64,000 nucleotides of DNA from Mycobacteriales bacterium (GTDB lineage Bacteria; Actinomycetota; Actinomycetes; Mycobacteriales; QHCA01), in NCBI GenBank assembly GCA_038276285.1, contig JBBPZR010000002.1, forward strand, positions 87,454 through 151,453, given 5' to 3'. This document shows, in pieces, positions 40,546 to 57,563 of this stretch; the stretch's first letter is position 1, and every line of letters starts with the position of its first letter. The position numbers and the translations under genes are program-made. The notes below the pieces were generated by a model, which saw only the letters and a program-made list of their open reading frames with translations, did not search any database and was not told where the DNA came from.

Positions 40546-40569
40546 GTCATGCCCCTTGGGGTCGTTTGC

Positions 40570-42405: not shown

Positions 42406-42439
42406 CGCGCTCACCTCTCGTGATCGATGGGATCGATGC

Positions 42440-44530
42440 CTACGAGCTGGGCGGGTCCGGGTTGGGCCCGCGCTGGACGGACTCTGATGAGGCAAGGCCG
42501 CGTCTTGCGCTGCGCTGCCTGAAGCCGACCAGGATGAGGGTCGCCCCGAAGATGATCAGCCAGTCTTTGACGAGGTTGTCGAGCGAACCGCGGACCAGGT
42601 ACACGATGCCGGCCGACAGGCCGACCACCGCGAGCACGGCGGAGACGATCTCCAGTCCACGTGTCGGCCGGGAGCCGCCCCTGATTGCGCCAACGATCTG
42701 GACGGGGCCATCGACCAACCAGAACATCACGACAATCGTCACCATCGTGTTCTCGGTGTCGTCATTCAGCGCGTTTGCCACGACGAGCCCCCCAGCGAGC
42801 AGCGACACCGTGGCGAGGATTTCCAACAATTGCCGCCGGCCCGCCCTGGCCTCGTCGGCGTCGAAAGACTGGATGACGCGGAGCGCGCCGTAAACGATCA
42901 ATACGAGGCCGAGCATCACGTGGCCGGCCCGGTACGGCACGTGCAAGGCCACGGCTGCCACCACGACGACGCCGCCGGCGACTATCGACGCAACGGGGGT
43001 TCGATTTGACCGGACGTGCGACCCGCCGGACGGCGTGGCTCCGAGCGGCGTCGGTGCCAGGCTGGGTATCCCCGCGGGTGTCGGGGAGTGGGCGGCCGGC
43101 TCCCGGACCGGGGCGGGTGGGTACGACGGTTCGCCCGCCGGGTGCGACGGGGAGGCTGAGGTGCGCTCGATGGCGGGCTGCGGTGCTTGCCGGGCCTCGG
43201 CGATGGGCCGGGGCGCCGGGATTGGGATCGACTCCGCCGTAACGATCGGCGTTGGATCGTGCGCCGCCGGCTCCTCCGGGCTTGGCGTCACTTCGACGTC
43301 GACAGGAATCAGGGCCTTGCCGGTGGGACCCTTGATGGCGATATTGCCGCGAAACTCGCCCGCTTGGGAGGTGTCGACCGATACGTCGAGGCCATCGGTC
43401 GTCTCCTCGATCCGGATCCAGCCCTGCGAGGGCTGGAACGTGCAGGCGCGGGCGATCGGGGGACCTAGCAGATGGATCTCACGGTGGACCGGCCTCGAAT
43501 CCTTGGCCACCTGCCCGAAGTGCAGGTCGCGCTCCCTCGTTTGGACGGCGCCCTCGCGGAGCGCCACTGCCGCGGCCTCGGCGACGTATTGGATGTCGGT
43601 GCGGGCGGTATCCTCCAGTGCGTTGTAGGCGCCTGCTGCGGCTGACAGGTCGTCGCTCGTCAGCCGTGCCCGCAGCTCGGTCACCGCACCGATGCGGGTG
43701 AACATGTTCGAGTCGGTTCGGGCGTCCTCCAGGTTCGGTGGGATGGGCAGTGGCCGGATGCGTCGCCGCCGGCTGCGGGCGAGGTACAGCTCCCCCTGCA
43801 TTTCGACGTCGCGGCTCGGCGTCTGATGCGGGTTCTGTTCGCGAACCCGGTCGAATAGGTAGTCGTACAACTCGTCTAGCGACACCCAGCCGTCCTCGTC
43901 GCGGTCGGCTTCGCCGGTGGCGAGTCCCTCCACCAGAGCGGTGGTGAACACCGATGGCTGGGGGTCGTGATCGTCGGCGAGCTGGTCGCCCTCGAAGGCG
44001 TACTCCATTGAGTTGGATGCGGTTATGACAGCCCGGCCGCGCCCACCGCCGAGCTTTCCGCCGGGAAAGCTGTCCAGAACGTTGACGTCCCCGGAACCGC
44101 GAACGGTTACACCCTGGCCGAATGCGCCCCCGTAGCAGCAATCCAGCAACAAAACGATGCTGCGCGACCGGCTCGTCCGCATGCACTGCTGGACGAAGTT
44201 CGCTGAGATCGCGGTGGAGCCAAGCCTGTTCGGGCGCGTGTTGCGGGCGGCGAAGTACAGCTCCCCGGACTCACTCTTCAGCCCGTGACAGGAGAAGTGA
44301 ACCAGGAGAACGTCGTCGGCCCGGCTCTCCGAGAACAGATCCTCGATCTGCGCCTGGACAACGTGCGCCGGCTCGTTGCGCGCCACCCGCACATCGAAGT
44401 CGCCGATCTCACGGTCGCCGAGGACACCTGCCAGCGCCTTCGCGTCCGCCGCCGGGGAGAGCAGGTGCCGCAGGCCCTCGTGTTCATAGTCGTCGCAGGC
44501 GACGATCAGTGCCTTCCGCCGGCCGTTCAC
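42440..44530 (-). CDS. Caspase-family (C14) peptidase with a C-terminal multi-TM module, EACC1-associated type
   Basis: I trimmed the start to the GTG at 44530 (VNGRRKALIVACDDY), which overlaps the EACC1 stop as GTGA. The catalytic His is in HFSCHG (codon at 44285-44287) and the Cys in LLLDCCYGG (44135-44140). After a long linker with a Pro-rich stretch, several hydrophobic helices occupy the last roughly 190 aa. Confidence 0.85.
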   Translation of the reverse strand: MNGRRKALIVACDDYEHEGLRHLLSPAADAKALAGVLGDREIGDFDVRVARNEPAHVVQAQIEDLFSESRADDVLLVHFSCHGLKSESGELYFAARNTRPNRLGSTAISANFVQQCMRTSRSRSIVLLLDCCYGGAFGQGVTVRGSGDVNVLDSFPGGKLGGGRGRAVITASNSMEYAFEGDQLADDHDPQPSVFTTALVEGLATGEADRDEDGWVSLDELYDYLFDRVREQNPHQTPSRDVEMQGELYLARSRRRRIRPLPIPPNLEDARTDSNMFTRIGAVTELRARLTSDDLSAAAGAYNALEDTARTDIQYVAEAAAVALREGAVQTRERDLHFGQVAKDSRPVHREIHLLGPPIARACTFQPSQGWIRIEETTDGLDVSVDTSQAGEFRGNIAIKGPTGKALIPVDVEVTPSPEEPAAHDPTPIVTAESIPIPAPRPIAEARQAPQPAIERTSASPSHPAGEPSYPPAPVREPAAHSPTPAGIPSLAPTPLGATPSGGSHVRSNRTPVASIVAGGVVVVAAVALHVPYRAGHVMLGLVLIVYGALRVIQSFDADEARAGRRQLLEILATVSLLAGGLVVANALNDDTENTMVTIVVMFWLVDGPVQIVGAIRGGSRPTRGLEIVSAVLAVVGLSAGIVYLVRGSLDNLVKDWLIIFGATLILVGFRQRSARRGLASSESVQRGPNPDPPSS

Positions 44531-44919
44531 TGGTCGCTCGCCCCGGCGGCGTGCCGGCCAACGAATAGCCCGATGAGCCGCTCCTGGTCGGCTGCCGACG
44601 CCTCGGAGAGTTCCAGCACGTCGCCCTCGATCTCCAGGCGGACCGTGCGACGGGTTCCTTCGCCGCGCGCGAGCCACTTCCTAATCGCGGAGACGACCGC
44701 CCGTAGGCTCTGGGCAGACCGGCCGAGCGTGATCAACAGCCCACCGGCCGCGACCACGTCGAACACCCTGGCGCCCGGCGGCGGCTCACCGGCCGGCAGC
44801 GCGGACGCTCTCTCCACGTCCAACTGGAGGAGTTCTTCGCGAAGGTATCCGATCAGGCTGTCGAGCCGCTCGGCATCCGCACCGTCTTCTCCCAGCTGAA
44901 GGCGCAATTCACCGCCCAT
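44527..44919 (-). CDS. Effector-associated constant component EACC1-like small protein
   Basis: I trimmed the start to MGGELRLQLGEDGADAERLDSLIGYLREELLQLD...VVAAGGLLITLG...RTVRLEIEGDVLELSEASAADQERLIGLF (130 aa), preceded by a G-rich RBS. The pattern matches my memory of the EACC1 family that pairs with caspase effectors. I have not verified this with an HMM. Confidence 0.6.
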   Translation of the reverse strand: MGGELRLQLGEDGADAERLDSLIGYLREELLQLDVERASALPAGEPPPGARVFDVVAAGGLLITLGRSAQSLRAVVSAIRKWLARGEGTRRTVRLEIEGDVLELSEASAADQERLIGLFVGRHAAGASDQ

Positions 44920-45084
44920 TGGCCCCCCTTCGCGCGGGTGAGGCCTTGCAGACAACACCAACACCCATGCTACCGACTGGGCCGGGCGGACAGTACGACA
45001 AACCTCGGTCGGCAACGAGACCCTTCACCGTCAAGCGTCCGGAACCGCGGCGCCAAGATAGACCTGTTTCGCGCAATGCTCCCG

Positions 45085-45876
45085 TCATCCGGCGTCCGGA
45101 CCTTCCGGTGAAACCTGCTTCGCGAATGCCCGCTTCGCGATCGGTTGCTCCGCGTCGAGTACCAACGGCTGGTCCGTTCGTGCGGCCGCCTGCTTGGCGC
45201 TGGCCAGCTCGCTGCCCGGCGTGGCGTAGATGACCTTCACGGCGCCGTTGCCGGATCCCCGGCGGTCGACCGGCGTTACCGCGGCGGGTTGGCCGTGCCC
45301 GTCGTCCACCCACAACTCGAAGTCGTCGTACTTGAAGAACGAGATCTCGGTGATCGGCCCCGGATAGTGGTGCACCCCACCGCCCTTCGGCAGCAAGCCC
45401 GTGTGCGCGTCCGCGGGCAGCGGCACGCTCGCGTTGCAGATGCTGTCGGTCCATCGCGCGACCCCGTCGGCATCGGTGATGGGGGTGTCGAGAAGACTGC
45501 GGATGCCGAGCTCCTCGACGGCCGCCGGGAACAGGGCGTAAAGCCGCCTCGCGTTCAGTCGCAGCATGTCGACCTTGGCCGGGTCCGCGCAAAACTGCGA
45601 CGACCACTCCATTCCGGCCAGGTTGCGCACGAGGAACCAGCCGTCGTCGTCCTTGAGCCACAAGCCGCCGCCGTGATGGTCCTGGTAGGGCGCCCTACCG
45701 TAGAGCAGACCGGCGACAGCCTCGGCCATCGCGACCATCCGTTTGCGGGACTTGACGTACGTCGCCGAGTCGGTGCGTCGCGGATGGCCGGGGATGTTGA
45801 TGCCCCACGGATGGTCCTCGCGTTCAATGTGCGGCTGACCCACCCCGGATGCGGAGGCACTCGGGTCACCTGTCAT
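45085..45876 (-). CDS. Hypothetical protein; no family recognised
   Basis: 263 aa. The start overlaps the stop of the catalase-related gene as ATGA, which suggests translational coupling. Third-position GC looks coding by eye. Confidence 0.7.
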   Translation of the reverse strand: MTGDPSASASGVGQPHIEREDHPWGINIPGHPRRTDSATYVKSRKRMVAMAEAVAGLLYGRAPYQDHHGGGLWLKDDDGWFLVRNLAGMEWSSQFCADPAKVDMLRLNARRLYALFPAAVEELGIRSLLDTPITDADGVARWTDSICNASVPLPADAHTGLLPKGGGVHHYPGPITEISFFKYDDFELWVDDGHGQPAAVTPVDRRGSGNGAVKVIYATPGSELASAKQAAARTDQPLVLDAEQPIAKRAFAKQVSPEGPDAG

Positions 45877-47072
45877 GTCTCAAAGTCCTCCTCACCGGTC
45901 GGCTCCAAATGATGGACCTGGTTCATGCTCTGGCGCAGCTCGGCCAGCTCCCAATACATCTGCCGCCGCGCACGGTTGGAGTTTCCGAGAGGCTTGTGCT
46001 GCGGCAAGCTGTGCCATGGGTTGAACCGCAGCACGTCGGCGAACCTGAGCTGCGCGTCGGAGTCGAAACGCTGGGCCGCGAGGTGCAGCCGAGCCACCGG
46101 GATGTACGGCGACAGACGCTCGGGCCATTTGACCGTGGCGTCTTCGAGAGGCATCCGGCGCGCGTCTGTCTGCACCTGCACCATGAAGTCGAAGTTCCAC
46201 TCGCCCTCGCAAAGTGTTCGGACCATGGCTTCGCGAAGGTAGTTTTCCGCCGGACGGGCCGGAATTTTGCTCCTCCCCCGCGACACTGGCTTCAACGAGT
46301 ACTGAACCGCCTGACCTTCGCCGAGCAGGAACGGAACGTTGCTGTAGTACTGCACCTCGAGCGGACTGGCGTGCATGGGTGAGTAGAGCAGCTGCATGAA
46401 CAAGTGCAGCAGGTGGAAATGGAACGGGTTCAACAGATATCCTAGCGGCGCTTTCGCGCGGACCCACCGCTGCATCTTCGCGTTCTCGCGGATGTCCGGT
46501 GTCACGAAACTCGCCGGAGACACGAGGATGAGATCCTGTGTCGCCACCTCGTCCGCCATGAGTTTCGGTCCGGCCACACCCATGATTTTGATGCCGACGG
46601 AGCACTGTCCGAGGTCTTCCAGGTCCGGCGGAGCGTACGGTCCCGGCCCGGAGAAGCGGACCCAGGCGGGGTAGCTGCCCGGCTCGGCAAACAGGCCCTG
46701 ACGCAGATGTGTCGGCAGCCCGGCCACGACCGAGAACTCGCCGCGCACGATGCCGAAGGTCTTCGTGTTGCCGAAGCGCTGGACAGACCCCGGCAGCCAG
46801 TTCTCCCGAGTGAACTTCGTGAGCTCGGCGATGATCTCCCGGGTGTAGCGCTCCTCGCCGGGCAGCAACCGCTCCTCCGCCAGACCGAGGTGCTCCTTGC
46901 GCCGCAACAGGTTTTGCAATGCCTGAGCAGCAGCGAACAGCGAGGGGCGCAGCCACCTGTCGAACTGCGGCCGGTACAGGAACTCCACCCGGCGCTCGAG
47001 ACGCCACAGCCACAGCACGAAGTCGCTCAGCGGGCGCAGGACGAGGAAGGTGAACAGTCCTTCGGGGTTCAT
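45873..47072 (-). CDS. Catalase-related hemoprotein (allene-oxide-synthase / hydroperoxide-lyase-like clade)
   Basis: 399 aa. QRFGNTKTFGIVRGEF aligns to catalase ERVVHAKGAGAFGYF. PAWVRFS aligns to catalase VRFS. NSNRARRQMYWE carries the R-x-x-x-Y proximal Tyr pattern (Tyr codon at 45954-45956). The distal His position is Asn (46767-46769). Confidence 0.7.
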   Translation of the reverse strand: MNPEGLFTFLVLRPLSDFVLWLWRLERRVEFLYRPQFDRWLRPSLFAAAQALQNLLRRKEHLGLAEERLLPGEERYTREIIAELTKFTRENWLPGSVQRFGNTKTFGIVRGEFSVVAGLPTHLRQGLFAEPGSYPAWVRFSGPGPYAPPDLEDLGQCSVGIKIMGVAGPKLMADEVATQDLILVSPASFVTPDIRENAKMQRWVRAKAPLGYLLNPFHFHLLHLFMQLLYSPMHASPLEVQYYSNVPFLLGEGQAVQYSLKPVSRGRSKIPARPAENYLREAMVRTLCEGEWNFDFMVQVQTDARRMPLEDATVKWPERLSPYIPVARLHLAAQRFDSDAQLRFADVLRFNPWHSLPQHKPLGNSNRARRQMYWELAELRQSMNQVHHLEPTGEEDFET

Positions 47073-47096
47073 GCGATCCCCTCGTCGTTGCAGCGA

Positions 47097-47465
47097 TCAG
47101 CGCCGGGCGGCGGTCACCGCGAGCGCGGTGTTGCCCGCGGAGATCAGCGTCGTGAGCGCGGCCACCCGTGGGGGGAGCTCTCGGCGCAGCCCGGCGGTGA
47201 GCGCCGAGAGCGTGTCGGTGGCGTGGATGAGTACGGCGACACGGACCGCCCGCTCGCGCTGCTCACCGCGGAGGAGCAGCAGGTCGAAGCCGATCACCAC
47301 GGTGCGGACTCCGAACATCCGCAGCGGGTAGACGGCCGTCGGCTCACGCCTCACATCGGTGCCCAACCGGCCCAGGATGAACGCGGGCGCGACCAAGGCA
47401 ATAGTGCCGTTGACGATGCGAATGGCAGCCAGAGCGGTCCGGGCACGGTCCTGCGACAACAACAT
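47097..47465 (-). CDS. Small hydrophobic protein; first gene of the minus-strand heme operon
   Basis: I trimmed the start to MLLSQDRARTALAAIRIVNGTIALVAPAFILG (122 aa). The upstream part of the 312-aa track ORF is antisense to the plus-strand membrane protein. Confidence 0.55.
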   Translation of the reverse strand: MLLSQDRARTALAAIRIVNGTIALVAPAFILGRLGTDVRREPTAVYPLRMFGVRTVVIGFDLLLLRGEQRERAVRVAVLIHATDTLSALTAGLRRELPPRVAALTTLISAGNTALAVTAARR

Positions 47466-47505
47466 GTAAGGCAATCTGGCACCGTCGTGGCGGACCGTCA
47501 ACCGG

Positions 47506-47523
47506 CTGTCAAGTATTTGACAG
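47506..47523. promoter_or_regulatory. Palindrome in the divergent promoter region of the heme-enzyme locus
   Basis: CTGTCAA-GTAT-TTGACAG is a perfect 7-bp inverted repeat that contains TTGACA. It lies between the divergent starts at 47465 (-) and 47595 (+). Confidence 0.4.
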
Positions 47524-47594
47524 TCGTAGCCCCTTAACAAGTCAGCGTTCCCGGGCCATGCTGAAGTCAATAGTGGCGATTGGCAGGCGGACAC

Positions 47595-49115
47595 ATGGAA
47601 TCCACGAACCCGGCCCAGCAGGTTTGGCGCATGGTCATGTCCGCGCTGATCTTCGCCGTCATCCTCACGGTGCTCGCCTTCGCCACACTTCCCGGGTTCT
47701 CGTGGCAGATTCTGGCGCTGAAGGCCTTCCTGGTTTTCGTCCTCGGGCTGTTCCCGGGGTGGCTCTATCTCCAATTCATCGGTTTCAGGGCGTGGACCTT
47801 GTACGACGAATACGTCCTGAACCTGCATAGGCTGCGCATTGACGACCCACGCAACCTGCCTAAACCGCCGCCAGGTACCCCATTCTATGCGAGCTGGCGC
47901 GAGTCGCTGCCGGCCGGGATTCGGCTCGATCAGAACATCTATCTCAAGAAGTTCGAGGCCGCCTACGGCGCGTCCGCGGTTCCGCCGTCCCGGCGCGGGA
48001 ACGACGACGAGGACGCCGCTGCGATTCGCCGTCAACGGCTCACCACACAGATCAAGCAGGAACGTTTTGGACCCGTTCTATTGGCGACGGCTGTGTTCAC
48101 CGTGGGCTGGGCCACTGTGTTGCAGCCTGAGATATACCACGGCTCGTTTCTGCACCTCTTCGGCGATTTTCGACTCTCCGGACTGCCCCGGCTGCCACTT
48201 GACGCGCTCCGGATGGGCTACATCGGTTCGTACGCCTTTGTCGTGCAGTCGCTCGTCCGCCGATATTTTCAGCAGGACCTCAAGTCTCGTGCGTACGTCG
48301 GCTTCGTCGCACGCATCATCTTCGTCTCGGCCGTTGTAGTCGCGCTCCATCCGGTCTGGACTTCGCTGAAGTCAGGCGCCTCGGTCGAGGTTTCCGCGGC
48401 GTTCGTCTTGGGTTTCTACCCGGAGCTAGGACTTCGCCTGCTCAAGCAACGGGTGATGTCGTCGTTCAAGCGAGCGGCAAATGACGATGAGGAGCAGTAC
48501 CCCCTCCGAGACCTCGACGGCTGCAATCTCTGGTGCCAGGCGCGGTTGCTCGAGGAAGGCGTCGAGGACATGCAGAACCTCGTGACCGCTAACCTCGTGG
48601 ACCTGATGGTCAACACCCGGATGCCGGTGTACCGCATGCTCGACTGGATGGACCAGGCGTATCTCTACCTGCTGCTCGAGACTCCCAAAGGGACGGATTC
48701 GGCCGGGCGACGGGACCGCAGGGTGCTGCGCGGTTACGGCGTGCGGACCGCCAGCCAGCTGTGTGAGCTGGTCGAGGCGGGCGGGCCCCCGAAGTTGGTG
48801 GCCGGCCTTTCCAGGCTGCTCAACGTCGACAAGCTGGACAAGGACGACGGACTCCCCAGCCGAATCCGGGCGATGCACCGGACGCTCGGCGGCGAGGTGA
48901 ACCTCTGGCACATCCGCGCGTGGAAGCGCCGCGACTGGCTCGCCGAATCAAGACGTCCGACGACTGTCGACCTGACACCCGCCGGCCTTGTCGTTCCCAA
49001 GCCCAGACCGCAAGGAGGCGACCATGACCACCCAGCACAGGATCGGGGACCGGCAACTGCTGAGCCTCGACGGAACAGAGCTGGACAGGCTCTTCAGGAC
49101 CAGCCCGGCCGGTGA
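47595..49115 (+). CDS. Polytopic membrane protein with a C-terminal soluble helical region; family unknown
   Basis: The start is at MESTNPAQQVW. There are at least 6 hydrophobic helices in two clusters separated by a charged loop. The C-terminal part reads (..CNLWCQARLLEEGVEDMQNLVTANLVDLMVNTRM..LRGYGVRTASQLCELV) and looks like paired helix-hairpin-helix motifs. The 3' end overlaps the next gene by 92 nt. Confidence 0.65.
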   Translation: MESTNPAQQVWRMVMSALIFAVILTVLAFATLPGFSWQILALKAFLVFVLGLFPGWLYLQFIGFRAWTLYDEYVLNLHRLRIDDPRNLPKPPPGTPFYASWRESLPAGIRLDQNIYLKKFEAAYGASAVPPSRRGNDDEDAAAIRRQRLTTQIKQERFGPVLLATAVFTVGWATVLQPEIYHGSFLHLFGDFRLSGLPRLPLDALRMGYIGSYAFVVQSLVRRYFQQDLKSRAYVGFVARIIFVSAVVVALHPVWTSLKSGASVEVSAAFVLGFYPELGLRLLKQRVMSSFKRAANDDEEQYPLRDLDGCNLWCQARLLEEGVEDMQNLVTANLVDLMVNTRMPVYRMLDWMDQAYLYLLLETPKGTDSAGRRDRRVLRGYGVRTASQLCELVEAGGPPKLVAGLSRLLNVDKLDKDDGLPSRIRAMHRTLGGEVNLWHIRAWKRRDWLAESRRPTTVDLTPAGLVVPKPRPQGGDHDHPAQDRGPATAEPRRNRAGQALQDQPGR

Positions 49116-49485
49116 CTTGCCGACCGGCGACGCCGACGGGACGGTGCTGCTGTGGTCGGGCACCTGGCTAGGCCTTGCTGCAGCGCGGGTCGCGCGAGCC
49201 GTCGGCTGGCAGGGCAAGGCGTTCGATGCCGACGGACGCGGGCTCCGCAACAAGATCACGCCGTTCGGCGTGCGTGCGATCCGGGCGCAGGTCTACCCAG
49301 GGCAAAGCTGGGTTGACGGCGGCGACTGCATCGTTCTGGACTACTCGAAGAAGTCCCTGGTCGCACGCTGGGTCCGCGACGAGATTCGGCTGGTCGGGCC
49401 GGATCACTTCCTCGGTGTCGTGTGGTTGCGGCACCGGCGCGTCGCGGCATTTTCGCTGCGATTCGCTCGCGCCCTCGACGGCTGA
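49024..49485 (+). CDS. GXWXG / DUF4334-type small protein
   Basis: I trimmed the start to MTTQHRIGDR, which is preceded by CAAGGAGG. It has a GTWLG (GXWXG) motif, followed by ..NKITPFG..A.VYPG..DGG.CIVLDYS....RDEIRLVG.....GV. The family name is from memory. Confidence 0.65.
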   Translation: MTTQHRIGDRQLLSLDGTELDRLFRTSPAGDLPTGDADGTVLLWSGTWLGLAAARVARAVGWQGKAFDADGRGLRNKITPFGVRAIRAQVYPGQSWVDGGDCIVLDYSKKSLVARWVRDEIRLVGPDHFLGVVWLRHRRVAAFSLRFARALDG

Positions 49486-49492
49486 GTCCGCC

Positions 49493-50767
49493 GTGCCGCA
49501 CCAACTCGCCGTGACTGTGCGCGCACCAATCGCACCGGGGCGCAAAGCAGACGTCGTGCAATTGCTCTCCGACATCAACCGCAAGGGCGCGGCGAGCGGG
49601 CCGCTGCCCTTCGCCGAAATGGAAGGCGTGCACTTCGCGCGCTTGTTCGTGATCGACGACGCAACCGACCTCGAAGGTAGGTCGCTACCGGCCAGCCTGG
49701 TGTACATGGCCGACATCGACGCACCGCTGGGCCGTCACTGGGGTGAGCTCGCCGCCAAGGCGGGGCCTGGTCTCGACGAGGTATTCGGGCGCTGCGCCGA
49801 CTACCCCACCGAGCCGGTGACCCCGGGCGCCCGAACGGCCTGGCTCCGCGGCCACAGCGTCGCCAGCGGCGCCGTCTACGTCAACACCGTCGGCCGGGGG
49901 CTGCAGCAGATCCGGGGCGAGGCGTGGCTGCGGGAGGCGATCGAGGACTTCCTCGACGACCCCAGCGTGAGCCGGGCTCGGGCTTCCGCCACTGAAGTCC
50001 GAGCCGCCGTGCGCGAGTTCGTCGCGTCGCGCCCGGACCTGGCCTGGGCGCTGCGTCCCCCTTCTCCGCCGTCACTGGGCTTCCGACTGCGGGAAGCGGC
50101 CCACAAGGTCTGCGTCCCCCTCGTGGCGCTCCTCTTGTCACCCTTGCTGCTGCTTGCGCTGCCGGTCTGGGGGGTCTTGCTTCGCACGCATGAGCGGCGC
50201 GATGCGGCCAACCGCGAGCGTCCCAGTCTCGAACACGTGCGGATGCTCGACCGGTACGAGGATCACGCCACGCAGAACCCTTTCACCGCCGTGGGTCTGG
50301 TCAAGGGCGGGTGGTTCCGGCAACTGACGATCCGCGCGGTGCTCTACGCCACGAACTACGGCACCCGACACCTTTTCGCGAGGGGGAACCTCGCGGGCGT
50401 CAAGACGATCCATTTCGCCCGGTGGGTCAGCATCGACGACCGCCGTCGCGTCATCTTCGTGAGCAACTACGACGGCAGCCTGGAGAGCTACATGGACGAC
50501 TTCATCGACAAGGTCGCCTGGGGCCTCAACGCCGTCTTCAGCAACGGCTCCGGCTACCCGGCGACTCGCTGGCTCGTGCTCGACGGCGCGAAGGACGAGC
50601 AGGCCTTCAAGAACTACCTGCGCCGCGGGCAACTGCCGACCCAGGTGTGGTACTCGGCCTACGACACGCTCACCGCGCACAACGTCGCGACGAACGCCAG
50701 CCTGCGCGCCGGCCTATGGGCCGACCTGACGCCCGACCAGACTCGCGACTGGTTGACTCTGCTATGA
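49493..50767 (+). CDS. Hypothetical protein with two HFAR-motif halves (internal duplication)
   Basis: I trimmed the start to the GTG at 49493 (VPHQLAVTVRAPIAPG). The two related blocks are GVHFARLFVIDD (49631-49642 for HFAR) and TIHFARWVSIDD (50411-50422). The stop overlaps the DyP start as ATGA. Confidence 0.7.
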   Translation: MPHQLAVTVRAPIAPGRKADVVQLLSDINRKGAASGPLPFAEMEGVHFARLFVIDDATDLEGRSLPASLVYMADIDAPLGRHWGELAAKAGPGLDEVFGRCADYPTEPVTPGARTAWLRGHSVASGAVYVNTVGRGLQQIRGEAWLREAIEDFLDDPSVSRARASATEVRAAVREFVASRPDLAWALRPPSPPSLGFRLREAAHKVCVPLVALLLSPLLLLALPVWGVLLRTHERRDAANRERPSLEHVRMLDRYEDHATQNPFTAVGLVKGGWFRQLTIRAVLYATNYGTRHLFARGNLAGVKTIHFARWVSIDDRRRVIFVSNYDGSLESYMDDFIDKVAWGLNAVFSNGSGYPATRWLVLDGAKDEQAFKNYLRRGQLPTQVWYSAYDTLTAHNVATNASLRAGLWADLTPDQTRDWLTLL

Positions 50768-52140
50768 CGATTGAGCTGGACCTCCCCGATATCCAAGGCC
50801 TCGTCGCGCGGGGGTACGGCCAACTGCCCCATTCCCGCTTCCTGATGCTGTCGGTCACCGACCGCGCCGGCGCCCGTGAGGCGCTGAGCCGGCTACTGCC
50901 ACAGGTGACGACGGCTGACGAGCGCCCAGATGCGACGGCTCTCAATGTCGCGGTGACGGCGCACGGCCTGGCTGCGCTCGGTGTTCCGGATCGGGTCGCC
51001 GACGGTTTCCCCCGGGAGTTCCTCGCCGGCATGAGCGACCCGCACACGAGTCGTCTGTTGGGTGATCTCGACGGGTCCGCGCCGGAGCACTGGGCCTGGG
51101 GAGGGCCTGCGACGCCTCCGGTCGATGCCGCGCTGTTGACCTACGCGGCCGACGCGGCAGCGCTCGACCGGCAGTGCGACGCACTCGAACAGGATGTCCG
51201 GAGCAGCGGCTGGCGCGTCGCCGCGCGACTGGACACCCTGCCGCTGCAGCCAGACGAGCCGTTCGGCTTCCACGACGGCATCTCCCAGCCGCTGCTGGAG
51301 GGACTGCCCAGGGCGGCAGGGCGCGACGCGACCGTCCGCGCGGGTGAGTTCGTGCTCGGCTACCCCAACGAGTACGGCAAGCTCACCGACCGACCGCTCG
51401 TGGATGCCGGAGACGATCCTGCGGGCGTGTTGGCGCACAACGGCGGCCGCGACAACCGCAACGACCTCGGCCACAACGGCAGCTACCTCGTGGCGCGCAC
51501 GCTCCGCCAGGACGTCGACGGCTTCTGGCGATGGGCAAGGGAGGCGACTCGCGGCTCGGACGGCACTTCGGACGAGGCGCGCGCCGTTGCCCTCGCCGCC
51601 AAGGTGGTCGGGCGCTGGCCGAGCGGCGCATCGCTGGTCAAGACGCCCGAGGGCGACGATCCGGCTCTCGCCGACGACAACGACTTCGGCTACCACCATT
51701 CCGACCCGCATGGGTTCGCCTGCCCGATTGGCTCGCACGTACGCCGTGCCAACCCGCGCGATGCACTGGACCCCGACCCGGGTTCACCGGAGTCGATCGC
51801 CGTCAGCAACCGCCACCGGCTGTTGCGGCGCGGCCGCGTGTACCGCAATGACGACGGCGAGACCGGGCTGCATTTCCTGTGCATCGGCGCGAACCTCTCC
51901 CGCCAGTTCGAATTCGTCCAGCACACCTGGCTCGCCAACCCGAACTTCGCCGGGCTCTACGACGACGCCGACCCGCTGGTCGGCCCACGCGCTGCGCGGG
52001 GGGCGACGTTCACGGCACCCGGCCAACCCGTCCGCCAGCGCTACCGTGACCTGCCGCGGTTCGTCACCGTCCGCGGCGGCGCCTACCTGTTCCTCCCCGG
52101 TCTGCGGGCGTTGTCCTGGATCGCCGGGGACCATCCGTGA
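50764..52140 (+). CDS. Dye-decolorizing (DyP-type) heme peroxidase
   Basis: I trimmed the start to MTIELDLPDIQGLV. It has the GXXDG motif FGFHDGISQP (Asp at 51274-51276), the proximal His in GSHVRRANPRD (51736-51738) and the distal Arg context LLRRGRVY. Confidence 0.88.
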   Translation: MTIELDLPDIQGLVARGYGQLPHSRFLMLSVTDRAGAREALSRLLPQVTTADERPDATALNVAVTAHGLAALGVPDRVADGFPREFLAGMSDPHTSRLLGDLDGSAPEHWAWGGPATPPVDAALLTYAADAAALDRQCDALEQDVRSSGWRVAARLDTLPLQPDEPFGFHDGISQPLLEGLPRAAGRDATVRAGEFVLGYPNEYGKLTDRPLVDAGDDPAGVLAHNGGRDNRNDLGHNGSYLVARTLRQDVDGFWRWAREATRGSDGTSDEARAVALAAKVVGRWPSGASLVKTPEGDDPALADDNDFGYHHSDPHGFACPIGSHVRRANPRDALDPDPGSPESIAVSNRHRLLRRGRVYRNDDGETGLHFLCIGANLSRQFEFVQHTWLANPNFAGLYDDADPLVGPRAARGATFTAPGQPVRQRYRDLPRFVTVRGGAYLFLPGLRALSWIAGDHP

Positions 52141-52164
52141 GCGAATCGAGAAGAGAGGACCATC

Positions 52165-53997
52165 ATGCGCGAGGCTGACGGTCACGGTTCTGCCGGCCGG
52201 TTCCACGACACTCCCTTCTGGCGGACCTACGACCGGCTGGCCAAATGGGCCGACCGCCGGTGGGGGTGGGACCGGCTGCCCAAGCCACTTGGCTTGGCCG
52301 TGCTGATCGGCGTACGGGACCTGCTGCGCCGCGAAAACCTGTTCGACACGAGCCACGAGCCGGCCACCGACCTGCCGCCCGTCGCCGCACCGGACCCACG
52401 CCACTCGACGGCGCGCGGCATCGACGGCAGCTACAACGATCTCGCCGCACCTCGGATGGGCATGGCGGGATCGCGCTTCGGCCGCAACATTCCCCCGGAC
52501 CTCACCGCCCAGCCGGCGGTCGAGACGATCCTCTCTTCACCGAGCCCGCGCGAGGTCAGCCGGTCACTTCTGACCCGGACGACGTTCGTGCCAGCAGAGT
52601 CCGTCAACGCCCTCGTCGCCGCCTGGCTGCAGTTCATGATCCACGACTGGTTCAGCCACGGTAAGAGCCCCAAGGACGACCCGTGGGAGGTGCGCCTGCT
52701 CGACGACGACCCGTGGCCCGACCGTCCAATGAGGATCATGCGCTCGCGACCGGACCCGACCAGACCTCCCGGCGCCCGCGGACCCGCGACCTACGCCAAC
52801 TCGGAGACGCATTGGTGGGACGCCTCGCAGATCTATGGAAGCAACCGCGAGTGGCACGACTTCGTCCGCACCGGCCAGGACGGCAAGCTCAAGGTGAACC
52901 CTGACGGGACGCTGCCCAGGCCCACCCACCCTGACCACGATCCCTCCCGCGCCCCTGGCTTCTGGGTGGGCCTGTCGATGATGCAGACCCTGTTCACCCT
53001 GGAGCACAACGCGATCTGCGACCGGCTCCGGGCCGACTACCCGAATTGGGCGGACGACGACCTGTTCCAGCGCGCCCGCCTGGTCAACGCGGCCCTCATC
53101 GCGAAGATCCACACCGTGGAGTGGACGCCCGCGGTGATCAGCCACCCCACAGCGGTGACCGGCCTGCGGGCGAACTGGTGGGGCATCGCCGGCGAGCGGG
53201 TCAGCCGCCTGTTCGGCCGGCTCAGCTCCAGCGAGGTGATCAGCGGCATCCCAGGATCACGCACCGAGCACTACGGCGTTCCGTACGCCCTCACCGAGGA
53301 GTTCGTCGCCGTGTACCGAATGCACCCCCTCGTGCCCGATGACTACCGGCTGCGATCAACCGCTGACGACACCGTCTTGCGGGAATGCACCTTCCGTGAC
53401 CTCGCCGGTCCGAACGCCCTGGAGGTCGTGGACAAGATCGGCCTCTGCGACCTCTTCTATTCCTTCGGTACACAGAATCCCGGCCTTGTCTGCCTGCACA
53501 ACTTCCCGCGCTTCATGCAGGAGTTCGAGCGGCCCGACGGCATCCTGCAGGACCTGGGCGCCACCGATATCCTCCGCTCACGGGAGCTCGGCGTGCCGCG
53601 GTACAACGAGTTCCGCCGCCTACTGCACCTGCGACCCGCCAACGACTTCAACGACCTGACCGACAACCCGACGTGGGCCCGCGAGATCGAGCGCGTCTAC
53701 CACGGCGACATCGAGCAGGTCGACGTGACGGTCGGCATGTACGCGGAGAAACGGCCGAAGGGGTTCGCGTTCAGCGACACCGCGTTCAGGATCTTTGCGC
53801 TGATGGCCTCTAGACGGCTCAACAGCGACCGGTTCTTCACCACCGACTACACGCCCGCGGTCTACACGCGCACGGGTCTGGACTGGATCGCGGACAACAC
53901 GATGGCGACGGTTCTGTTGAGGCACTACCCCGGCCTTCGCCCCGCGATGCGCCAGGTCGACAACGCCTTCGCCCCATGGAAGCAAGCGTCTGGATGA
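52165..53997 (+). CDS. Heme peroxidase-cyclooxygenase superfamily fatty-acid dioxygenase (alpha-dioxygenase/COX-like)
   Basis: 610 aa. AAWLQFMIHDWFSHG carries the distal His (52642-52644). HYGVPYALTEEFVAVYRMHPLVPD carries the Y-x-x-H arrangement (Tyr 53314-53316, His 53323-53325) seen in COX and plant alpha-DOX. RSRELGVPRYNEFRRLL is also typical. Confidence 0.85.
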   Translation: MREADGHGSAGRFHDTPFWRTYDRLAKWADRRWGWDRLPKPLGLAVLIGVRDLLRRENLFDTSHEPATDLPPVAAPDPRHSTARGIDGSYNDLAAPRMGMAGSRFGRNIPPDLTAQPAVETILSSPSPREVSRSLLTRTTFVPAESVNALVAAWLQFMIHDWFSHGKSPKDDPWEVRLLDDDPWPDRPMRIMRSRPDPTRPPGARGPATYANSETHWWDASQIYGSNREWHDFVRTGQDGKLKVNPDGTLPRPTHPDHDPSRAPGFWVGLSMMQTLFTLEHNAICDRLRADYPNWADDDLFQRARLVNAALIAKIHTVEWTPAVISHPTAVTGLRANWWGIAGERVSRLFGRLSSSEVISGIPGSRTEHYGVPYALTEEFVAVYRMHPLVPDDYRLRSTADDTVLRECTFRDLAGPNALEVVDKIGLCDLFYSFGTQNPGLVCLHNFPRFMQEFERPDGILQDLGATDILRSRELGVPRYNEFRRLLHLRPANDFNDLTDNPTWAREIERVYHGDIEQVDVTVGMYAEKRPKGFAFSDTAFRIFALMASRRLNSDRFFTTDYTPAVYTRTGLDWIADNTMATVLLRHYPGLRPAMRQVDNAFAPWKQASG

Positions 53998-54500
53998 GTG
54001 CCGTCGCAAGTTCGACAAGTGGCAAGGAGACCCGGCTCGGTGCGAAGGCCGCACTCGGCCGACGCGGAGGCGCCGCGATCTATCCCGGCGTCAGATTCCG
54101 GGCGTACATTGACCGGATGGGACCGTCGCGGGTCCGTTGTCGACCACCGTCGATGCCTGGCCTCCGCGGCGAACGTCGGTGCTCAAGTGGTCGCCCTTGA
54201 AGCCGGTCTGCGACCCAGTCCGCGATTCGTTGCCCAAATCGGCCCCGATGTCGCCCCGCGGGATCGAGGTGGGTCACGACTCGCGCCTGACAGCTGGTGT
54301 CCCCCCGCGCATGGTGAAGTGGCGAGACACCAGGTCGTTGTCGTGGGCAGCGCCACACCGGCGTGGGCCCGTAGGGGGTCTCATGATCGTTCGTTTCCGG
54401 CGACGGGTGCTGGTTTCGGGCGGAACGGGCGCGCGGTCTCCACCGGGTTCGGGCCTCATCCGTGACCAAGCCGCAAGCCGAGGCAATGGGAGATTCACGC

Positions 54501-54710
54501 ATGATCACACCCAGGTGTTTCTTTGTCCCACCTCACATCACCGCCCACATCGCCAGGACCACCCCGCGGGAGAACGCCGACCCCACGGCCGCAAGTCGCA
54601 CGGCCGTAGTCGACAACCTCCTGCGTCAGCAGCGCAAGAGCGTGGCCTACGCGAACCTGCAGACGCTCACGCCGCCCCGCCCGGGCAAGGGTGACCGCCA
54701 GATTTTCCAC
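54501..54710 (+). pseudogene. Possible N-terminal fragment of a protealysin-like M4 metallopeptidase (propeptide region only)
   Basis: MITPRCFFVPPHITAHIARTTPRENADPTAASRTAVVDNLLRQQRK resembles the C-x-x-x-PP-x-x-L N-terminus of protealysin-type M4 peptidases. No catalytic domain (HEXXH) follows in any frame. Confidence 0.3.
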
Positions 54711-54829
54711 GGCCTGCTCGAACTCGCCGGCGTACTCCGACACGGCCACCAACCCGAAGCCGGGCAAGCCCGTCAACACCAGCATCGCCGTCGCCGCAGT
54801 AACGTCAACACGCACCTGGGACCTCCACA

Positions 54830-54860
54830 GATCAAGGACTTCGACACCCCTGATCGTGAG
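54830..54860. repeat. Possible collapsed third copy of the GATCAAGGA inverted-repeat element
   Basis: GATCAAGGACTTCGACACCCCTGATCGTGAG shares the left arm (GATCAAGGACTTC) and the right end (CTGATCGT) with copy B but lacks the spacer. Confidence 0.3.
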
Positions 54861-55057
54861 GTCCCAGGCCAATTTCCGGGCTCAGGCTGGAAGTCGTGTC
54901 GCGGCCCGGTCACCACGCTTCGCTGAGAAGAGCCAATCATGCCGACGTCGGCACAATAGGGCTTATGCCGACTCGGCGCGGATCAGCTGCGGGGTAAAGG
55001 GGTATCCCGCCCGCCGAAGTCGAGCAAGTCTAGTACTGTCAGAACTGCAGCCTATGG

Positions 55058-55078
55058 AGGCTGGTCTCTCACCAGCCT
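55058..55078 (-). terminator. Stem-loop downstream of the TPR gene (possible terminator)
   Basis: AGGCTGGT-CTCTC-ACCAGCCT is an 8-bp perfect stem about 45 nt past the stop at 55121. There is no U-tract. Confidence 0.3.
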
Positions 55079-55120
55079 GGGTCTGCGGATTCACTCACCC
55101 GGGTCGATTTCAGCGTCCGC

Positions 55121-57361
55121 TCACAATCTCGGCGGGGTCGGAATACTCCTATACCGGACCTTGAATATTTCGGGGGGCCGGTCTGGCGGTCGCAGTATCG
55201 GCGGTTGCGGCAACAGTCCCCGTCGATCACCGCGTTCCAAAAGCTCTACCTCGAGCACGCCGATCTTCAGTCGGCTAGAATTAGGGAGCAGATATGCCGC
55301 GAGGGGAAGCAAGAGCAATACAGCAATGATCGCCGCGAACCCGGCCGAACTCAAGCGATGCTCCCAAAGTAGCCACGTGATTAGGCCTAGCAGCACGATG
55401 GCCAGGCCAGTCACGACTGGCGCGAATCTGCGAGGCAGGGGACGCGGGCCGCTGGCCAGAGACCGTATGTACTTATCGGCGGTAATGAGTTCCACGCTGC
55501 CAGCACCGGCAATCTGAGCCGCGCGCCGCCATGCCGCGCGTGCGTCACGGAGATGACGTAGTAGTAGTTGCGCCTCCCCCTCAAGGAGGAAGAGTCTTGC
55601 TTGGTCGCGGCGCTCGTGCGGCGGCAGCGTTTCGCTTGCCTCCCACAGGGACTTAGCCTTGCCGATGTCGTCCAGGGCGGCCCGCGCCTCCTCGCGGTCG
55701 CTGTCTCGATCGGCTAGCGTGAACCGGATTCCAGCCCTCACTCCGTAGAGCCGCCACGTTGTCTGCCAGTTCGCATCGACGCTAAGCCGGATCGCCTGGT
55801 CTATCCCAGCTTCCGCTTCGTAAGGCAGATCCAGCCGGTTGAGGACGTCGGCGAGCGTTGCGAAAGCTGTCGGCGAAGCATCGCCGAGGCTAATCGACTC
55901 CTGACAGGCCTGGCGGGCCTCAGAAAGATCGTCACCAATTTGCAATAGGACGTATCCAATTCCCTCATATGCCTGCGACAAGGTATCGGTGGAGCCGCTG
56001 TTCCGCGCCAAATCGCGGGCCTTCTCATATGCGAGCAACGCCTCCAGATGCCTCCCAAGGGCGCAATAAGCTCCTCCGCGCCCAACCTGCAGCCTCCCAT
56101 CTGCTGGGTATCTGAGGCGCTCGGCTTCGCGATAGTCATCTAGTGCCTCAGCCTCCATGCCAAGTCGGCAGCGAACTCCAGCTCTCAAAAAGTAGGCGGG
56201 CGCATTACCAGGATCTTGCTCAATGACCTGGTCTATGACGCGCTTTGCCTCAGCTGGCCGCCCCGCGATGTTTAGTACGGCAGCCCGCGTACGCTGCAGG
56301 TTCGGATATCGATCGTTGATGCTGGCGGCTTTATCGTAGGCCTTTAGCGCCTCGTCGTACTGGCGATGCAACGCCCTACTGGAACCGAGGCTCATCCATG
56401 AACCAACGTCGGTATCCGCGCGCCTGACCAGTCGCTCATACATGGCGGCGGCGGACGCGAAGCGATCTAGCTCGTAGAGAATTGCTGCCAGCCACTCATC
56501 CAGATCAAGACTCCGCTCGAGAGTATCGGAGTAGCCATGTTTACGCGCCTTATTGAAAGCGGAGAGTGCCCGCGCAAACAGCCGCCGAGATTCTCGATGT
56601 TCCACTCCATCTGCTCCGCCGAGTTGGTACAGGCAGGCACCACGCCAGACGTGGAGGTTGGCGACGTCCGCAAAGCCGCGTTCGAGAGCATCATCAAAAA
56701 GGCTGAGAGCAGCCCCGTAATCTCGGGCGACGGTGTACGCCCGGAACCCAGAGCCGAACTCCGCTTCGCCCGGGGCCGCAGCTGGCTCTTCGGACGGTTG
56801 CTCCTCGAATTGTGGGGTGAAGTCCTTAGTCAGCGTCCGCATGCGGTCCGCCTCAGCCGCATCAAAGAGAATGCCTTGAACCGAGCCGCCAGGTCGACTG
56901 AAGTCAGTCATCACCTGTACTGCGAAGTCGAGGGGGCCATTACTCGAAAAAGGACGGGCGTTGGGGATTCGATCGTAGGCATCGAACAGGAACGTCTCCG
57001 GCACGCCGACGTATACGGGGGCAGACGCTCGCAGTTTGGCGAGCCGGCCGGGAAGCTCATCAGCATGCTCGATGAGCAGCACGGCCTCGGAACCCTTGGG
57101 AACGTCATGGGTCCATGGCGCGACGTCATTTGCTTCAAGGTAGGGAACGCCCCGCACAGCCGGAGCTACGAAGGTGGCCATTGCACGGGCAGACTCGGTG
57201 ACTAGGTCTTCCAGCAGCCGGGCGAGCCCTTGAGCGTCGTCTTCATCACGCAGCAGCACGAGGAAGGCGTACCGCTGGTCCGACCGGTCGGCTTCCAATG
57301 CGTCCATGTTGGACAATCTTGCCTTAGTTGCGCGCAGGCCTGCAGCGTTCCTCCCTCCCAT
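55121..57361 (-). CDS. TPR-repeat protein with an unknown N-terminal domain and C-terminal TM helices; lower GC than its surroundings
   Basis: 746 aa. The central roughly 400 aa are TPR-like repeats with a recurring A..Y/F....A...P pattern. The C-terminus has two hydrophobic helices (VVTGLAIVLLGLITWLLW, FAAIIAVLLLLPLAAYLL). The start is Met at 57361 or 57307. Codon usage is visibly more A/T-rich than in the neighbours. Confidence 0.75.
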   Translation of the reverse strand: MGGRNAAGLRATKARLSNMDALEADRSDQRYAFLVLLRDEDDAQGLARLLEDLVTESARAMATFVAPAVRGVPYLEANDVAPWTHDVPKGSEAVLLIEHADELPGRLAKLRASAPVYVGVPETFLFDAYDRIPNARPFSSNGPLDFAVQVMTDFSRPGGSVQGILFDAAEADRMRTLTKDFTPQFEEQPSEEPAAAPGEAEFGSGFRAYTVARDYGAALSLFDDALERGFADVANLHVWRGACLYQLGGADGVEHRESRRLFARALSAFNKARKHGYSDTLERSLDLDEWLAAILYELDRFASAAAMYERLVRRADTDVGSWMSLGSSRALHRQYDEALKAYDKAASINDRYPNLQRTRAAVLNIAGRPAEAKRVIDQVIEQDPGNAPAYFLRAGVRCRLGMEAEALDDYREAERLRYPADGRLQVGRGGAYCALGRHLEALLAYEKARDLARNSGSTDTLSQAYEGIGYVLLQIGDDLSEARQACQESISLGDASPTAFATLADVLNRLDLPYEAEAGIDQAIRLSVDANWQTTWRLYGVRAGIRFTLADRDSDREEARAALDDIGKAKSLWEASETLPPHERRDQARLFLLEGEAQLLLRHLRDARAAWRRAAQIAGAGSVELITADKYIRSLASGPRPLPRRFAPVVTGLAIVLLGLITWLLWEHRLSSAGFAAIIAVLLLLPLAAYLLPNSSRLKIGVLEVELLERGDRRGLLPQPPILRPPDRPPEIFKVRYRSIPTPPRL

Positions 57362-57485: not shown

Positions 57486-57563
<78 letters not shown>

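Follow-up and report, generated by a model that had tools for sequence, protein, structure and literature searches.

Tandems of a dioxygenase and a catalase-related enzyme have been described in coral (PMC5617202) and in Nostoc punctiforme, where a 10S-hydroperoxide lyase of the catalase-related type accompanies a linoleate 10S-dioxygenase (10S-DOX; Brash et al. 2014, cited via PMC13049297). Actinobacterial homologues of fatty-acid alpha-dioxygenase (alpha-DOX) have previously been noted only in a phylogeny, in which they cluster with cyanobacterial relatives that are proven alpha-DOXs (PMC8720084). Here we analyze a 64,000-nucleotide (nt) stretch of the genome of a Mycobacteriales bacterium (hereafter the window; GenBank assembly GCA_038276285.1, contig JBBPZR010000002.1, positions 87,454 to 151,453), in which three unrelated heme-enzyme families are encoded together between positions 45,085 and 53,997 of the stretch. 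An initial annotation of the locus had proposed this combination, and all three members, an alpha-DOX homologue, a DyP-type peroxidase and a catalase-fold protein, are confirmed. Together with a small transmembrane protein and two proteins from unannotated families, here called P153 and HFAR, they make up a widely conserved six-gene set of this uncultured soil actinobacterium that is undescribed. Our literature search found nothing on the six-gene set, on a DyP linked to an alpha-DOX or on a catalase-related subfamily with a distal Asn, and no operon or fusion that joins a DyP to a catalase-fold protein, all of which is weak evidence given that the library searched was incomplete.

The Nostoc system resembles the window's in its pairing of two bacterial genes, one for a heme dioxygenase from the peroxidase-cyclooxygenase superfamily and one for a small hemoprotein of catalase fold that does not (in the window, probably does not) function as a catalase, and in the logic, proposed for the window, of making a fatty-acid hydroperoxide and then transforming it. 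It differs in that its dioxygenase is a 10S-DOX, whereas that of the window falls in the alpha-DOX clade and would be expected to oxygenate C2; in that the catalase-like protein of the window has Asn in place of the distal His; and in that it has no counterpart to DyP, HFAR, P153 or the small transmembrane protein, all four of them conserved. For the window we propose that alpha-DOX and the small transmembrane protein would make a membrane-located 2-hydroperoxy fatty acid, that DyP and the catalase-like protein would consume it, and that HFAR and P153 would act on a product or keep the complex at the membrane, a scheme to which we give roughly even odds.

A recurrent six-gene set and its natural fusions

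Eight open reading frames (ORFs), three on the minus strand and five on the plus strand, form two divergent arms that flank a 129-bp spacer. The ORF coordinates and codon-position GC, which backs one coding frame for each of the eight, agree with the anatomy first described for the locus, including the palindrome in its spacer:

45085-45876, minus strand: DUF6424 protein, 263 amino acids (aa), identified by Pfam DUF6424; specific to the window
45873-47072, minus strand: catalase-fold hemoprotein, 399 aa, identified by family profile and AlphaFold; conserved member
47097-47465, minus strand: small hydrophobic (transmembrane) protein, 122 aa, about four helices, of an unannotated family; conserved member
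47466-47594, no strand: divergent intergenic region, 129 bp, with an inverted repeat that is a candidate operator or pair of back-to-back -35 boxes
47595-49115, plus strand: polytopic membrane protein, 506 aa, first gene of the plus arm, backed by codon-position GC; specific to the window
49024-49485, plus strand: P153, small soluble protein, 153 aa, of an unannotated family; conserved member
49493-50767, plus strand: HFAR protein, 424 aa, with no Pfam family; conserved member
50764-52140, plus strand: DyP-type heme peroxidase, 458 aa, C/D-like class, matching PDB 8RE3; conserved member
52165-53997, plus strand: fatty-acid alpha-dioxygenase homologue, 610 aa, matching An_peroxidase and PDB 4HHR; conserved member

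Six of these genes recur together in related loci. In a survey of metagenome contigs anchored on HFAR, 12 of the 15 loci with >5 kb on both sides carry all six (small transmembrane protein, P153, HFAR, DyP, alpha-DOX and catalase-like protein), and alpha-DOX and the small transmembrane protein are each present in 13/15. Another survey, anchored on alpha-DOX, covered 80 species genomes with 66 well-flanked loci; the full set was found in 4/66, and the small transmembrane protein, the most constant neighbour of alpha-DOX, lies near it in 47/66. The gene after HFAR is DyP in 70 loci of the HFAR-anchored survey, and the gap between the two has a median of 18 nt. The order of the set is variable: among the loci fetched for comparison (designated L), L083 has small transmembrane protein-HFAR-DyP-alpha-DOX-P153-catalase-like protein and L088 has P153-HFAR-DyP-small transmembrane protein-alpha-DOX-catalase-like protein. 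L162 is a tight six-gene operon (gaps of 11-88 nt) beside riboflavin genes, L163 is a divergent version, and L164, from Streptomyces, again holds the same six genes as a tight operon. The set occurs in Streptomyces, in other Actinomycetota and in metagenome-assembled genomes (MAGs) of Thermoleophilia and Thermomicrobiales; it spans two phyla or more. The flanks of 42 clusters (113 proteins, compared by their 25 most frequent families) yielded no further shared gene and no shared regulator; because they are this heterogeneous, the six-gene unit is taken to be self-contained.

Two pairs within the set also occur as single polypeptides. P153 and HFAR are fused in frame in several Streptomyces (576-599 aa, including L164 and protein P0127). 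Proteins P0245, P0248 and P0253 each join a full DyP to a catalase-like domain of the Asn type, and on their contigs HFAR lies directly upstream of the fusion. The DyP part of these fusions is 40-50% identical to that of the window (pairwise BLASTP E 1e-85 for P0245 and 5e-91 for P0248). We take these natural fusions to argue for a partnership of DyP with the catalase-like protein and of P153 with HFAR, and synteny and fusions combined place the linkage of the three heme families far beyond chance.

Chance juxtaposition in a variable region near a tRNA is an account that the lower G+C of the locus relative to its surroundings (0.64-0.67 vs ~0.70), its site between defence-like genes and tRNA-Ala and the presence of two genes that are not conserved partners among its eight would all suit. 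For the six genes it is refuted by their joint occurrence in dozens of unrelated contigs, across at least two phyla and in shuffled order, and by the fusion of two pairs into single proteins; we regard it as close to impossible, and it stands for the DUF6424 gene and the 506-aa protein only. The initial annotation had treated all eight genes as one locus and had proposed a test of their co-occurrence in actinobacterial genomes. Six of them do recur there, and the remaining two, which are confined to the window, are lineage-specific additions to the six-gene set.

In one case the catalase-like gene itself varies. On the S. decoyicus chromosome (L166, 12735-13308) only a fragment of it lies between the DyP gene and the small transmembrane gene, at the place where the near-identical Logan contig L167 (3873-4838) has a 321-aa gene; this difference could be one of gene decay or of assembly.

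Active sites of the three heme enzymes

The 610-aa protein matches Pfam An_peroxidase (PF03098, E 2.1e-109, residues 84-592), which bears out the placement of 52165-53997 in the peroxidase-cyclooxygenase superfamily. In the PDB it matches the alpha-DOXs of Arabidopsis (4HHR, E 6e-115) and rice (4KVJ, E 1e-111) over nearly its full length and, more weakly, lactoperoxidase (3e-20) and the cyclooxygenases (COX) COX-1/2 (~1e-17); judged by these search scores, it belongs to the alpha-DOX clade and is closer to it than to COX or lactoperoxidase. The motifs singled out at first, QFMIHDW and VYRMHPLVPD, do align to the distal His and the Tyr-x-x-His pair of 4HHR: His160 in QFMIHDW stands opposite the distal His, and Tyr384 and His387 stand opposite the catalytic Tyr and proximal His within VYRMHSLLPD. 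The PDB alignment also sets His316 and Arg550/551 opposite residues of plant alpha-DOX, of which the Arg-Arg pair and the His bind the substrate carboxylate in the rice alpha-DOX structures. Tyr384, His387, His316 and Arg550/551 are invariant across 96 alpha-DOX orthologues. The window protein has in common with plant and cyanobacterial alpha-DOX (4HHR, 4KVJ, CalDOX/LepDOX) a full-length homology (E 1e-111 to 6e-115 in the PDB), the distal His, the catalytic Tyr, the proximal His and the Arg-Arg/His carboxylate site, whereas most of its orthologues differ from these enzymes in having Arg or Lys for the distal His. We know of no actinobacterial alpha-DOX that has been characterized and of no alpha-DOX for which gene-cluster partners have been described. 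At the distal position (52642-52644 in the window) actinobacterial sequences mostly show Arg, in QFM[IV]RDW, or Lys, with the Tyr, the proximal His and the Arg-Arg pair kept; the distal His of alpha-DOX has been described as "partially conserved" (PMC8720084).

The 458-aa protein matches PDB entry 8RE3 (E 5e-60, residues 3-454) and, further down, an ancestral D-type DyP (2e-29), fungal DyPs and DyP2 of Amycolatopsis (4G2C). Pfam DyP_N and Dyp_perox_C remain below threshold on it, as does TIGR01413 (E 2e-26, 93 bits, under the cut-off of 100.5). Asp171 of the GxxDG motif, the proximal His325 and Arg355/356 are invariant among 50 orthologues. These residues and the match to 8RE3 uphold the DyP call made initially, and at the level of sequence the protein is confirmed as a C/D-type DyP with intact active-site residues. 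Its likeness to other C/D-type DyPs (8RE3, 4G2C and the fungal enzymes) is one of full-length similarity, with the GxxDG Asp, proximal His and distal Arg kept; the difference lies in the linkage of the window type, by operon and in some lineages by fusion, to a catalase-fold hemoprotein. To our knowledge, few DyPs have an established physiological substrate.

For the 399-aa protein, searches of Pfam (E<=10), NCBIfam (E<=1) and, with the single sequence, the PDB returned no match; two distant fused relatives give weak matches to Pfam Catalase, and some homologues are labelled "catalase family protein" by NCBI. A family profile built from 80 diverse homologues found in the PDB MAP-2744c (3E4W, 1.7e-17, a match that spans positions 78-281 only and so excludes the distal motif and the proximal Tyr), many catalases and coral allene oxide synthase (AOS; 1U5U, 1.5e-8). 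Foldseek, run on an AlphaFold model (pLDDT 94.7), returned 3E4Y (4e-13), 1U5U (1e-12) and catalases (~1e-10), with >150 catalase chains at E<=1e-3. Since the family profile and the AlphaFold/Foldseek comparison both find catalase-related proteins, the 399-aa protein is, by profile and predicted structure, a catalase-fold protein nearest to MAP-2744c and coral AOS. Its proposed membership of the catalase-related family accordingly finds no backing in Pfam or NCBIfam and stands on the fold.

The heme pocket of this protein departs from the wider family on the distal side. The window motif R-F-G-N-T-K-T-F-G aligns to R-x-x-H-x-K-x-H-G in the wider family, where the distal position is His in 63/80 relatives; conversely, R99-x-G101-N102-T-K-T-x-G107, with Asn102 at the distal position, is invariant in 37/37 cluster-linked homologues (48-100% identical). 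On the proximal side Arg369 and Tyr373 (R-x-x-x-Y) are invariant in the 37 cluster-linked sequences and present in 77/80 wider relatives. The family alignment therefore supports both the exchange of His for Asn in RFGNTKTFG and the kept R-x-x-x-Y that had been reported initially. In the region of the distal Asn, alignment of the family profile to a fungal catalase sets "lishPvFF" of the family opposite "nnntPvFF", and the window protein reads L-V-S-P-A-S-F, with no Asn. The N-terminal pair of long helices is present. Because the distal His is lost, true catalase chemistry seems unlikely for the Asn-variant protein.

The initial annotation had also compared this protein to an AOS or a hydroperoxide lyase (HPL). 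Coral AOS and HPL depend on distal Thr66, His67 and Asn137 (PMC5617202); Thr66-His67 of coral AOS aligns to Gly101-Asn102 of the window protein, and Asn137 aligns roughly to Val184-Ser185. With coral AOS, in its fusion to a lipoxygenase (1U5U/3DY5), and with coral HPL the window protein shares a catalase core fold and a predicted Tyr-ligated heme with a supporting Arg, and with the coral fusion a physical coupling to an oxygenating enzyme; among the structural matches, 1U5U ranks third (E 1e-12). The two differ in that the fusion partner of coral AOS is a lipoxygenase and that of relatives of the window protein a DyP, and their sequence identity is ~15%. Of the original comparison, the fold, the proximal Tyr and Arg and the linkage to an oxygenase stand, and the distal His does not. 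As one, possibly two, of the three distal residues are missing, "AOS or HPL" is an analogy and no statement of membership: the catalase-like protein appears to share fold and proximal side with the coral enzymes and to differ in its distal machinery, its likeness to them resting on context.

MAP-2744c (3E4W/3E4Y), a 33-kDa actinobacterial mini-catalase of Mycobacterium avium subsp. paratuberculosis, is the best match by profile (1.7e-17) as well as by structure (4e-13, TM 0.76 on the target), and the window protein differs from it by an extra N-terminal helical region of ~60 residues. MAP-2744c is said to keep the distal His and to act as an organic-hydroperoxide peroxidase. Other relatives carry additional domains. 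In P0308, P0314 and P0318, which are 36-40% identical to the catalase-like protein, these are C-terminal RoxA-like cytochrome c domains; Asn-type versions of ~555-566 aa (P0038, P0050, P0080-P0082 and others) have an N-terminal DUF948 (PF06103), possibly a membrane or coiled-coil anchor.

The joint encoding of three peroxide-reactive hemoproteins, the status of MAP-2744c, itself a catalase-related protein, as the nearest solved relative of one of them and the signals of membrane association could also reflect a system that detoxifies lipid peroxides or relieves oxidative stress, the alpha-DOX homologue acting mainly as a peroxidase or sensor. We consider this improbable: a detoxifier would have no need of Tyr384 and the Arg-Arg pair, which are invariant, a hydroperoxide-making enzyme would be odd in a detoxification operon, and the flanks show no recurrent gene for a redox regulator, a thiol peroxidase or a supplier of reductant.

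Unannotated partners and genomic surroundings

HFAR matched no Pfam or NCBIfam family. Its own family has >4,200 members, and those with names among the best 120 are all "hypothetical". Its AlphaFold model (pLDDT 85, pTM 0.87) suggests two alpha+beta domains of ferredoxin-like (ABM-like) type, linked by a hydrophobic helical hairpin (~195-236, with a hydrophobic segment at 206-224); each half carries an H-F-A-R motif (His47 and His307). An hhalign comparison finds the two halves homologous (probability 97.5%, E 6e-12), which confirms the internal duplication claimed for this protein. HFAR was also considered as a diverged DyP paralogue and rejected (hhalign probability <1%). The best Foldseek matches of the model, at E 1e-5 and with low TM scores, are to two proteins with tandem ABM domains, WhiE-ORFI (9LMN) and Abx(+)O (9LTX).

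A fold nearest to polyketide ABM/SchA-like proteins, together with the frequency of the set in Streptomyces and other producers and its variable genomic contexts, would fit a tailoring cassette for a specialized metabolite other than a fatty acid (a polyketide or an aromatic acid), which the alpha-DOX homologue would decarboxylate or oxygenate. Against it, no core family for a polyketide synthase, nonribosomal peptide synthetase, terpene or other biosynthetic pathway is among the 25 families most frequent in the 113 flanking proteins of 42 clusters, the cluster also occurs in the Thermoleophilia and Thermomicrobiales MAGs, and the recurring neighbours are lipases. We hold this account to be very improbable.

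P153 starts at the ATG at 49024, behind an AAGGAGG ribosome-binding site; this longer start is taken to be correct since the first 30 residues are conserved across the family. The gene overlaps the 3' end of the ORF for the 506-aa membrane protein by 92 nt (49024-49115), in a different frame. P153 had been labelled a GXWXG/DUF4334 protein, and that label has to be withdrawn: no Pfam model supports it, and G-x-W-x-G is not conserved in the family, whose invariant motif is W63-x-G65-K66, the GTWLG of the window copy lying in a variable stretch. As a candidate member of PF14231 or PF14232, the window protein has no Pfam match at E<=10, and none of 14 family members has one at E<=1. We found no Pfam domain on any of the best 120 of 4,483 P153 homologues, and a profile search of the PDB returned nothing. 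DUF4267 was tried for the small transmembrane protein and rejected, as the window copy scores below threshold (E 3e-4) and 0/7 homologues match.

The 263-aa protein matches Pfam DUF6424 (PF19988, E 5e-69, 233 bits against a cut-off of 25) over profile positions 28-282 of 292; PADLOC and the PDB gave nothing for it, the gene is absent from all other loci examined, including those with the closest catalase-like contexts (L162 and L163), and our literature search found no paper that mentions DUF6424. The 506-aa membrane protein has 4-5 hydrophobic segments and is annotated as a gene in the public record; it has no Pfam, NCBIfam, PDB or PADLOC match and is absent from the other loci examined, save for one weak match of 28% in L063. 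Codon-position GC shifts to the P153 frame at ~48950, inside the 506-aa ORF, because of which the last ~50 residues of the protein may be non-functional read-through.

Both ATGA overlaps of stop and start codon that had been claimed were verified in the sequence, one, which couples the two genes translationally, between the catalase-like stop and the DUF6424 start and the other between the HFAR stop and the DyP start. The inverted repeat in the spacer (47503-47526, CGGCTGTCAA-gtat-TTGACAGTCG) has arms of 10 nt that are 90% complementary, is single in the window (chance expectation 0.08 matches at <=2 mismatches) and was not found in the other 166 fetched loci. No sigma-70 consensus promoter was detected in the spacer, and no regulator gene lies within the cluster. 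The repeat is a candidate operator or a candidate pair of back-to-back -35 boxes.

The G+C content of the locus is ~65-70%; along the window it dips to 0.64-0.67 at 44-48 kb and at 54-58 kb, vs ~0.70 elsewhere. Downstream of the DUF6424 gene (39172-45015, minus strand) lie four genes, among them a 130-aa ORF, a 457-aa protein with a weak DUF900 match, a caspase-like Peptidase_C14 protein (42440-44677) and a subtilase (40570-42495), of which the last two match the PADLOC candidate models PDLC02987 and PDLC03014; these genes may be a defence-type protease cassette. Beside it, Pfam identifies a toxin-antitoxin pair (L001 12007-12650), formed by a PIN-domain gene (38096-38512) and an adjacent RHH_1 gene (~37.9 kb). 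On the other side, the 1.1 kb that follow alpha-DOX (53998-55120) hold no convincing ORF and no Rfam match; a 746-aa TPR protein (55121-57361) and tRNA-Ala (57486-57562) come next. The Rfam scan of the window found two tRNAs only. The whole block of 38-57.5 kb may be a variable island beside a tRNA. It would be set among housekeeping-like genes that, to judge by eye from the N-terminal sequences, look like those for GlmU, PRPP synthetase, ribosomal protein L25, MoeA and GalU.

Putative exchangeable oxidases and the proposed lipid-peroxide pathway

Actinobacterial alpha-DOX lies most often in a triad in which a GMC oxidoreductase of 620-650 aa lies between the small transmembrane protein and alpha-DOX (36/80 species genomes; L025 7666-11836 and 35 others, L003-L074). 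The triad, which appears to be undescribed, may constitute a complete unit of alpha-oxidation.

GMC flavoproteins also occur in place of alpha-DOX. L132, which lacks alpha-DOX, has a cholesterol-oxidase-like GMC flavoprotein between the DyP and catalase-like genes (PDB 1COY, 3.6e-33), and L135/L138, which lack it too, have such a flavoprotein next to P153 (4REK, 5.5e-30). Given this replacement and the frequent pairing of GMC with alpha-DOX, the design is best read as a four-gene core that handles peroxide plus an exchangeable, lipid-directed oxidase that uses O2. The peroxide from a GMC protein would be H2O2, if these proteins are oxidases like their cholesterol-oxidase relatives. The same interchange of the oxidase position (in L132 and L135/L138), the rank of GMC as the commonest partner of alpha-DOX (36/80 loci), the broad substrate range of DyPs and the resemblance of HFAR to cofactor-independent tailoring enzymes of the ABM type would be expected if alpha-DOX or the GMC oxidase only generated peroxide, with which DyP, the catalase-like protein, HFAR and P153 would oxidize a second substrate such as a lipid, a quinone or an aromatic compound. 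We think this unlikely, though it is the main rival to the scheme. The flanks offer no recurrent biosynthetic genes and no candidate second substrate, the GMC proteins of these loci are only putative H2O2-forming oxidases, and alpha-DOX is replaced in two lineages only; moreover, alpha-DOX retains its full set of fatty-acid-binding residues, and a lipid hydroperoxide would be a costly oxidant.

Lipases recur beside these genes. A patatin/cPLA2-like protein of ~780-960 aa lies next to alpha-DOX or the four-gene module in 8 loci (L106 2532-5096, L108 5202-7706, L020 3862-6210, L101, L065, L017, L070 and L170 4827-7718); it has an N-terminal CSGGGIRS...GVSGGS, and its match to Pfam Patatin is sub-threshold (E 3e-5). 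Other lipases (Lipase_3 or patatin) are found in L164, L166 and L171. Such neighbours would be consistent with free fatty acids being supplied.

Returning to the lipid-hydroperoxide scheme proposed at the outset, we infer its chemical steps, their order and its membrane location, whereas the gene structure, folds, active-site conservation, synteny and fusions on which it draws are observed. The locus would be this genome's copy of a membrane-associated, six-gene lipid-oxidation unit with two modules. Module A (the small transmembrane protein and alpha-DOX) would, by homology, convert a free fatty acid and O2 to a 2-hydroperoxy fatty acid, which module B (P153, HFAR, DyP and the Asn-type catalase-like protein) would receive. 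DyP and the catalase-like protein are probably a physical pair, since they are one polypeptide in some bacteria. A Tyr-ligated heme without a distal His would cleave or rearrange an organic O-O bond, not dismutate H2O2, and DyP would reduce a peroxide or oxidize a product. HFAR and P153, to judge from the Streptomyces fusion and the predicted HFAR hairpin, probably serve at the membrane surface as an accessory enzyme or as a carrier. The window's copy would have been split into two divergent transcription units and have gained the DUF6424 gene and the 506-aa protein.

Several points weigh against this scheme. As is known from plant alpha-DOX, 2-hydroperoxy fatty acids decay spontaneously, so that a dedicated transforming enzyme is not obviously needed. 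Module B is found without alpha-DOX and with a cholesterol-oxidase-like flavoprotein instead, which suggests that its need may be for peroxide as such and not for a fatty-acid hydroperoxide; most Streptomyces alpha-DOX homologues, in turn, are paired with a GMC oxidoreductase and have no module B. The position of distal His160 is Arg or Lys in most alpha-DOX orthologues. The catalase-like protein lacks the distal His of the known catalase-related AOS and HPL (His67 in coral; PMC5617202), so their chemistry is not simply transferable to it. Finally, the window itself has no lipase gene.

More generally, we tentatively suggest, at well below even odds, a widespread and unrecognized lipid-peroxide pathway in which alpha-DOX or a flavoprotein oxidase would feed the pair of DyP and Asn-distal catalase-fold protein and a new membrane-anchored, tandem ferredoxin-like enzyme. 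Whatever the reaction, the set offers a conserved genetic context for testing bacterial COX/alpha-DOX homologues, and the linkage or fusion of DyP to a catalase-fold protein beside a hydroperoxide-forming dioxygenase points to a testable class of substrate. Culturable Streptomyces, among them Streptomyces sp. NBC_01565 and S. decoyicus, carry the cluster, which opens it to genetics and lipidomics. For the HFAR, P153 and small transmembrane families, whose metagenomic members number in the thousands each, the cluster provides the first functional context, and the invariant exchange of His for Asn would mark a subfamily whose heme chemistry, as predicted from its residues, cannot match that of catalase, coral AOS or MAP-2744c. 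If the lipid-peroxide pathway is real, it would give DyPs a physiological substrate and catalase-related proteins a new catalytic class, and Streptomyces and soil Actinomycetota would make novel oxylipins, aldehydes or 2-hydroxy lipids through it.

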